Assembly (NCBI RefSeq): GCF_056746865.1
Contig: NZ_CM163382.1
Reading direction: 5' to 3' (one strand)
Length of the DNA: 64,000 nucleotides
The first letter of the stretch is position 1. Every line of letters begins with the position of its first letter. The notes under the pieces were generated by a model. The model did not search any database and was not told the origin of the DNA. It saw only the letters and a program-made list of their open reading frames with translations. Of this stretch, positions 63,180-63,328 are shown in pieces. The translations under genes were made by a program, and so were the position numbers.

Positions 63180-63234
63180 TGTTTAAATACCTCCGAGGCA
63201 GAAATTACGTCATCAGACGTCGCTAATCCATGAC

Positions 63235-63249
63235 TTTACGTTGTTTTAC
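63235..63249 (-). promoter_or_regulatory. CpxR binding box (GTAAA-N5-GTAAA) in the divergent cpxR/cpxP promoter region
   Basis: Minus-strand GTAAAACAACGTAAA; an additional GTAAA half-site lies near 63280. Confidence 0.6.
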
Positions 63250-63328
63250 ACCCCCTGACGCATGTTTGCAGCCTGAATCGTAAACTCTCTATCGTTGAAT
63301 CGCGACAGAAAGATTTTGGGAGCAAATG

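Follow-up and report, generated by a model that had tools for sequence, protein, structure and literature searches.

PhoB pho boxes and OmpR sites are direct repeats with a period of about 10 bp, bound by a winged-helix dimer in head-to-tail arrangement. In PhoB and OmpR operators, which replace or abut the -35 element, the promoter-proximal site occupies the -35 position of a promoter that has no -35 hexamer, and strong and weak sites are combined in arrays. For CpxR, the consensus has been quoted as GTAAA-N5-6-GTAAA or with a spacer of N4-8 (PMC9600279, PMC3158067). The entries of Table S1 of PMC9600279, which cites De Wulf 2002 for them, include two E. coli sites, 'cpxR/cpxP1' (GTAAAACAACGTAAA) and 'cpxR/cpxP2' (GCAAACATGCGTCAG). 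In Yersinia pseudotuberculosis, a DNase footprint was obtained for a box ~55 nt 5' of cpxR, and CpxR~P binding dropped when this box was scrambled (PMC3158067). A Reg-Seq preprint recovered a CpxR activator site at the E. coli cpxRp promoter and confirmed binding of CpxR by mass spectrometry. On the cpxP side, mRNA levels rise 60-fold upon NlpE overproduction and drop to 0.03 when the same plasmid is present in a cpxR mutant (Table 1 of PMC9600279), and transcription requires the alpha-CTD residues K298 and K291 (PMC3995681).

Here, we examined how the cpxR-cpxP region of a 64-kb window (the whole stretch of DNA that was analysed, 64,000 nucleotides) compares with these systems. Genome matching and annotation identify one end of the window as the E. 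coli cpxA-cpxR / cpxP locus: this 1.6-kb end was matched in 5,425 of 5,426 complete E. coli genomes, with at least 99% identity in 4,783, and the matching genomes annotate cpxA, cpxR, cpxP, and fieF across it. Based on its open reading frame and this annotation, cpxA (61111-62484, minus strand) encodes a sensor histidine kinase of 457 aa and follows cpxR in the cpxRA operon. The box is read by the product of cpxR (62481-63179, minus strand; ATG at 63179-63177), an OmpR/PhoB-family response regulator of 232 aa with the Pfam domains Response_reg and Trans_reg_C. The PDB entries 4uhj and 4uht are CpxR domains; the PDB holds isolated receiver and effector domains of CpxR only and no CpxR-DNA complex, and a literature search found no structure of a CpxR transcription-activation complex. 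In the opposite direction, cpxP (63329-63829, plus strand) encodes a periplasmic inhibitor/adaptor of the Cpx pathway, assigned to the LTXXQ family by its Pfam match, and the two divergent genes are separated by a start-to-start gap of 149 bp. The cpxP reading frame opens with ATGATG (63326/63329), the second ATG being the annotated start. Because the first triplet reads GTG in four species of a nine-species alignment and is absent from Acerihabitans, which keeps the second ATG alone, the annotated start at 63329 is the conserved one.

The sequence-only reading had placed a GTAAA-N5-GTAAA repeat on the minus strand at 63235-63249, between cpxR and cpxP. Exact inspection bears this out: the plus strand reads TTTAC-GTTGT-TTTAC at these positions and hence the minus strand GTAAA-ACAAC-GTAAA (GTAAAACAACGTAAA, box 1), so that the tandem pentamer is present and lies within the 149-bp gap between the two ATGs. 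With two GTAAA pentamers and a 5-bp gap, box 1 fits the published direct-repeat consensus exactly. It is also the sole exact GTAAA-N5-GTAAA in the 64-kb window.

How much the repeat says on its own depends on where it is looked for. For the window as a whole the exact match is weak evidence, as 0.14 matches per window are expected and 13 of 100 dinucleotide shuffles contained at least one; with one mismatch allowed, the window holds 4 matches versus 3.3 expected. For the 149-bp cpxR-cpxP gap, in contrast, the chance expectation is ~3e-4. The pentamer itself is common, with 190 copies on both strands of the window compared to 117 ± 10 in dinucleotide-preserving shuffles, none of which reached 190, an excess that likely stems from codon or codon-pair usage. 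The shuffles and the abundance of GTAAA are what would speak for a chance match without regulatory role, a reading to which we give practically no credence: the repeat sits in the very gap in which it was expected, its position and pentamers are invariant across nine Enterobacterales and recur in Vibrio (see below), and binding or activation has been reported for both the Yersinia ortholog and E. coli. In addition, a CpxR weight matrix built from 38 published sites, from which both cpxP sites and the srkA site had been excluded, gave box 1 a score of 19.3 bits, ranking it first among 127,972 positions and strands, with a runner-up at 14.8 bits.

Comparison with the footprinted sites, proposed in the sequence-only reading as a way to check the box, showed that box 1 is letter-identical to 'cpxR/cpxP1' of PMC9600279 Table S1, which likewise argues against a chance match. 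Indeed, 'cpxR/cpxP1' and 'cpxR/cpxP2' map uniquely to 63235-63249 and 63255-63269, both on the minus strand, and are thus the same objects in sequence, strand relationship, and locus. The second of them, a degenerate box reading GCAAA-CATGC-GTCAG (GCAAACATGCGTCAG, box 2; 63255-63269, minus strand), is documented by the published entry, the matrix, and its conservation; the sequence-only reading, correct about box 1, had missed it. Its matrix score is 8.7 bits (rank 49 of 127,972), and an overlapping same-strand register at 63245-63259 scores 8.8 bits (rank 46); as the two registers score alike, either choice of occupied pentamer pairs would suit the sequence. Read toward cpxR, the array is GCAAA CATGC GTCAG GGGGT GTAAA ACAAC GTAAA, with four same-strand pentamers at an exact 10-bp spacing.

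Among described CpxR targets, the ppiA, motA, psd, yccA, ompC, tsr, and srkA-dsbA boxes share the same GTAAA-N5-GTAAA repeat and the same regulator. The cpxRA/cpxP box differs from these other regulon boxes in being common to two divergent promoters and in being paired with an in-phase degenerate box. The cpxR-cpxP region of Y. pseudotuberculosis is closer still, with a GTAAA-N5-GTAAA ~55 nt upstream of the cpxR ATG as against 55 nt here; this is another genus, and the likeness covers the pentamers, their spacing, and their distance from the ATG. Beyond CpxR, the operator resembles those of PhoB and OmpR in the period of its direct repeats, in the expected head-to-tail winged-helix dimer, in a promoter-proximal site at the place of a -35 element, and in the combination of strong and weak sites; it differs from them in its pentamer, in its regulator, and in that the CpxR repeat runs opposite to cpxP, the strongly activated promoter.

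The conservation of the region was examined in loci found by scanning contigs for CpxR homologues, which yielded at least 80 loci, at least eight of them from Enterobacterales and others from Vibrio, Shewanella, and further groups; divergent cpxP homologues were confirmed by tblastn. The phylogenetic footprint comprised nine Enterobacterales and three Vibrio sequences. Both GTAAA pentamers of box 1 are invariant in the nine-species alignment, and 13 of the 15 columns of box 2 are invariant as well. Mean column identity in the nine species reaches 98.5% in box 1 and 97% in both box 2 and positions 63225-63234; overall, 63225-63269 is conserved at 93-99% in the nine Enterobacterales versus 68% for the adjoining 63215-63224. 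Positions 63196-63214 are conserved at 95%, and the cpxP 5' UTR shows a mean column identity of 85%. The seven other Enterobacteriaceae loci all have the box edge 55 nt away from the cpxR ATG; in Acerihabitans the distance is 53 nt. Of 5,425 E. coli genomes, 5,421 carry an identical 75-bp core (63226 to 63300). Strain 118UI carries IS insertions that break collinearity with the window.

The Vibrio loci (L010, L011, and L014) carry paired boxes ~65-115 nt upstream of cpxR; in the sense direction of cpxR, they read GTAAAG(C/A)nACGTAT(G/A)-N6-GTAAAnnnnCGTAAA. Both boxes are on one strand, and the one that fits the consensus is the nearer to cpxR, which is also the arrangement in E. coli. The arrangements differ in that the boxes are separated by 6 bp in Vibrio and by 5 bp in E. 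coli, and in that the distal Vibrio box, at 13.9-15.7 bits, comes far nearer to the consensus than box 2 of E. coli does.

In order to place the boxes relative to the two promoters, we used promoter sequences as listed in later papers, on which both start sites rest. PMC9753035 (Table S10) gives PcpxP as a 60-mer and PcpxP(+5) as the same sequence with GTTGA added, called the first five transcribed nucleotides. The 60-mer maps to 63234-63293; since it ends at 63293 and PcpxP(+5) continues with GTTGA, the cpxP transcription start (+1, a G) is at 63294 on the plus strand. This start in turn sets the cpxP -10 hexamer as TAAACT (63281-63286, plus strand; -13 to -8), which reads TAAACT, TAGACT, or TAGAAT in the nine species and thus retains TAnAnT. 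TATCGT at 63290-63295 was considered as the cpxP -10 and rejected; it reads TCTCGT in several genera and is also contradicted by the +1 at 63294 derived from PcpxP and PcpxP(+5). The hexamer 17 bp 5' of the cpxP -10, ACGCAT, matches TTGACA at one of six positions.

For cpxR, Table 3 of PMC7041290 lists a 60-nt 'cpxR promoter', which corresponds to minus-strand positions 63255-63196. Since other entries of this table look like -60 to -1 listings, the cpxRA transcription start is probably the base that follows, 63195 (minus strand), which would set the two starts 99 bp apart. Relative to this putative +1, a -10-like hexamer TAATTT would lie at -12 to -7 (63202-63207, minus strand), within the well-conserved stretch noted above, and a -35-like hexamer TGGATT at -35 to -30 (63225-63230, minus strand), with a 17-bp spacer between them and the -35-like hexamer abutting the CpxR box. 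A 9-nt palindrome, CCTCCGAGG (63190-63198), overlaps the cpxR Shine-Dalgarno sequence and the putative cpxR +1; it is invariant in eight Enterobacteriaceae and is not retained in Acerihabitans. As a start at 63195 leaves only its right half transcribed, the palindrome would not form an mRNA hairpin and may simply be the ribosome-binding site.

No promoter was found when 63000-64000 was scanned for the sigma-70 consensus, a result that fits weak, activator-dependent core elements rather than missing promoters. Both the lack of a consensus promoter and the one-in-six match at the cpxP -35 are in keeping with activator dependence. With these coordinates, the position of the box relative to the cpxP core elements, which the sequence-only reading had named as a further check, can be given: box 1 spans -59 to -45 of cpxP (centre -52), upstream of the TAAACT hexamer at 63281-63286, and -54 to -40 of cpxR (centre -47), so that its centre falls within ~100 bp of both start sites, with the cpxR start as deduced above. 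Box 2 spans -39 to -25 of cpxP (centre -32), where the -35 element would be.

The placement of box 1 bears on whether it serves both operons or one promoter only, for instance with cpxP activated by CpxR and cpxRA driven independently. The CpxR dependence of cpxP, which far exceeds that of most regulon members (PMC9600279), would suit a site dedicated to cpxP, and the cpxR core elements are deduced rather than mapped. However, the Yersinia study regards the box as common to cpxR and cpxP (PMC3158067), and the placement at -47 of cpxR and -52 of cpxP is nearly symmetric. We therefore consider service to a single promoter very improbable. The expectation that the site is both autoregulatory and cpxP-activating is instead supported by its identity with the published site, by the Yersinia footprint and mutation, and by Reg-Seq, and we hold with high confidence that it serves the divergent cpxRA and cpxP promoters of E. 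coli as a common operator and acts as outlined in the following.

Upon envelope stress, CpxA would phosphorylate CpxR, and CpxR~P, a winged-helix regulator of the OmpR/PhoB type, would bind the direct repeat of box 1 as a head-to-tail dimer. A second CpxR~P dimer would then occupy box 2, probably cooperatively; being on the same strand at 10-bp spacing, all four pentamers lie on one face of the helix. At cpxP, the box 2 dimer would stand in for the missing -35 element through a class-II-like contact. With box 2 in place of the -35, recruitment of RNA polymerase to cpxP would depend on CpxR~P, and for this reason cpxP would be essentially off without CpxR. On the other side, box 1, centred at -47 directly upstream of the weak cpxR -35, would mediate positive autoregulation, while the CpxP protein would exert negative feedback on CpxA. 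As the repeat points toward cpxR and is inverted relative to cpxP, the model needs CpxR to activate in either orientation. What goes beyond the observed sequence, identity with published sites, position, and conservation, and beyond the binding and activation reported in the literature, is inference: that box 2 fills cooperatively, that a class-II-like contact is made at cpxP, and that the core hexamers are exactly those assigned.

A further GTAAA near 63280 had been put forward as an additional half-site. The letters are present at 63280-63284, but on the plus strand, opposite to the tandem box, and the sequence by itself gives no support to their being a half-site. The 15-mer starting at 63280 scores -2.0 bits on the CpxR matrix, and this 15-mer scoring found no partner pentamer at 10-bp spacing. 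A lone GTAAA is expected ~0.4 times per 149 bp. Moreover, the pentamer overlaps the cpxP -10 hexamer TAAACT (63281-63286) and reads GTAGA in six of the nine aligned species; since GTAAA is lost in these six whereas TAnAnT is kept, 63280-63284 is, judged by its sequence pattern, more plausibly a piece of the core promoter than half of a CpxR site.

Two lines of evidence would nevertheless suit a genuine third CpxR contact, that is, a low-affinity site at about -14 to +5 of cpxP filled at high CpxR~P. The account of PcpxP in PMC9753035, citing Yamamoto & Ishihama 2006, gives three CpxR-P sites, one of which reaches +5, and the GTAGA variant of the other genera is also found in a single entry among the published CpxR sites, the fabA one (PMC9600279 Table S1). 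Weighed against the negative score without a partner, the loss of GTAAA in most species, and the chance frequency of a lone pentamer, a third contact seems unlikely, though by no means negligible. A more far-reaching version, which we regard as a long shot, is that CpxR-like half-sites inside both -10 elements, G-TAAACT (63280-63286) at cpxP and G-TAATTT (63208-63202, minus strand) at cpxR, are low-affinity sites filled only at very high CpxR~P. If so, they would cap or brake both operons and provide a built-in ceiling beside the known CpxP feedback, and the -10 half-site of cpxP would explain the report of a third CpxR-P site that extends to +5. The core-promoter reading of 63280-63284 is retained here.

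Downstream of cpxP, the 3' UTR (63830-63897, plus strand) contains a strong terminator hairpin at 63870-63888 followed by a T run. It is presumably the place of the 3'-UTR-derived sRNA CpxQ. Rfam searches at the gathering threshold gave no match for either the control region or the 3' UTR of cpxP; on the opposite strand, a sub-threshold match to Hrs1 (RF02628) covers 63824-63896, with 44.5 bits versus a cut-off of 56.4 and E = 3.5e-7. Gathering-level matches in the window are, in order, Spot 42 (8505-8623), CsrC (9652-9905), ES222 (16683-16790), isrC (21054-21176), SECIS_3 (46767-46825, minus strand), and naRNA4 (61020-61097), the last just downstream of cpxA.

Two further CpxR-like sequences were noted in the window. 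One of them, GGAAAACCACGTAAA (55159-55173, minus strand), is the fourth-best match of the window to the CpxR matrix, at 13.3 bits. It lies in the gap between two divergent ORFs, one of 489 aa on the minus strand (end at 54958) and one of 278 aa on the plus strand (start at 55246), and could have arisen by chance. The other, GTAAAAGCTTGTAAG (950-964, plus strand), is letter-identical to the published CpxR site of srkA (yihE) (PMC9600279 Table S1) and is located 66 nt upstream of a 328-aa ORF (1030-2016) that is followed by DsbA (2033-2659). The window thus carries, at its opposite end, another promoter known to be controlled by CpxR, that of srkA-dsbA.

Taken together, the element between cpxR and cpxP is the published CpxR site itself, which was already known, and adds no new biology. 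Its value is one of annotation: both published CpxR boxes are present, together with both activator-dependent promoters. PcpxP is a common building block of stress reporters and biosensors, so knowing where the boxes, the -10 hexamer, and the +1 lie is of practical use.
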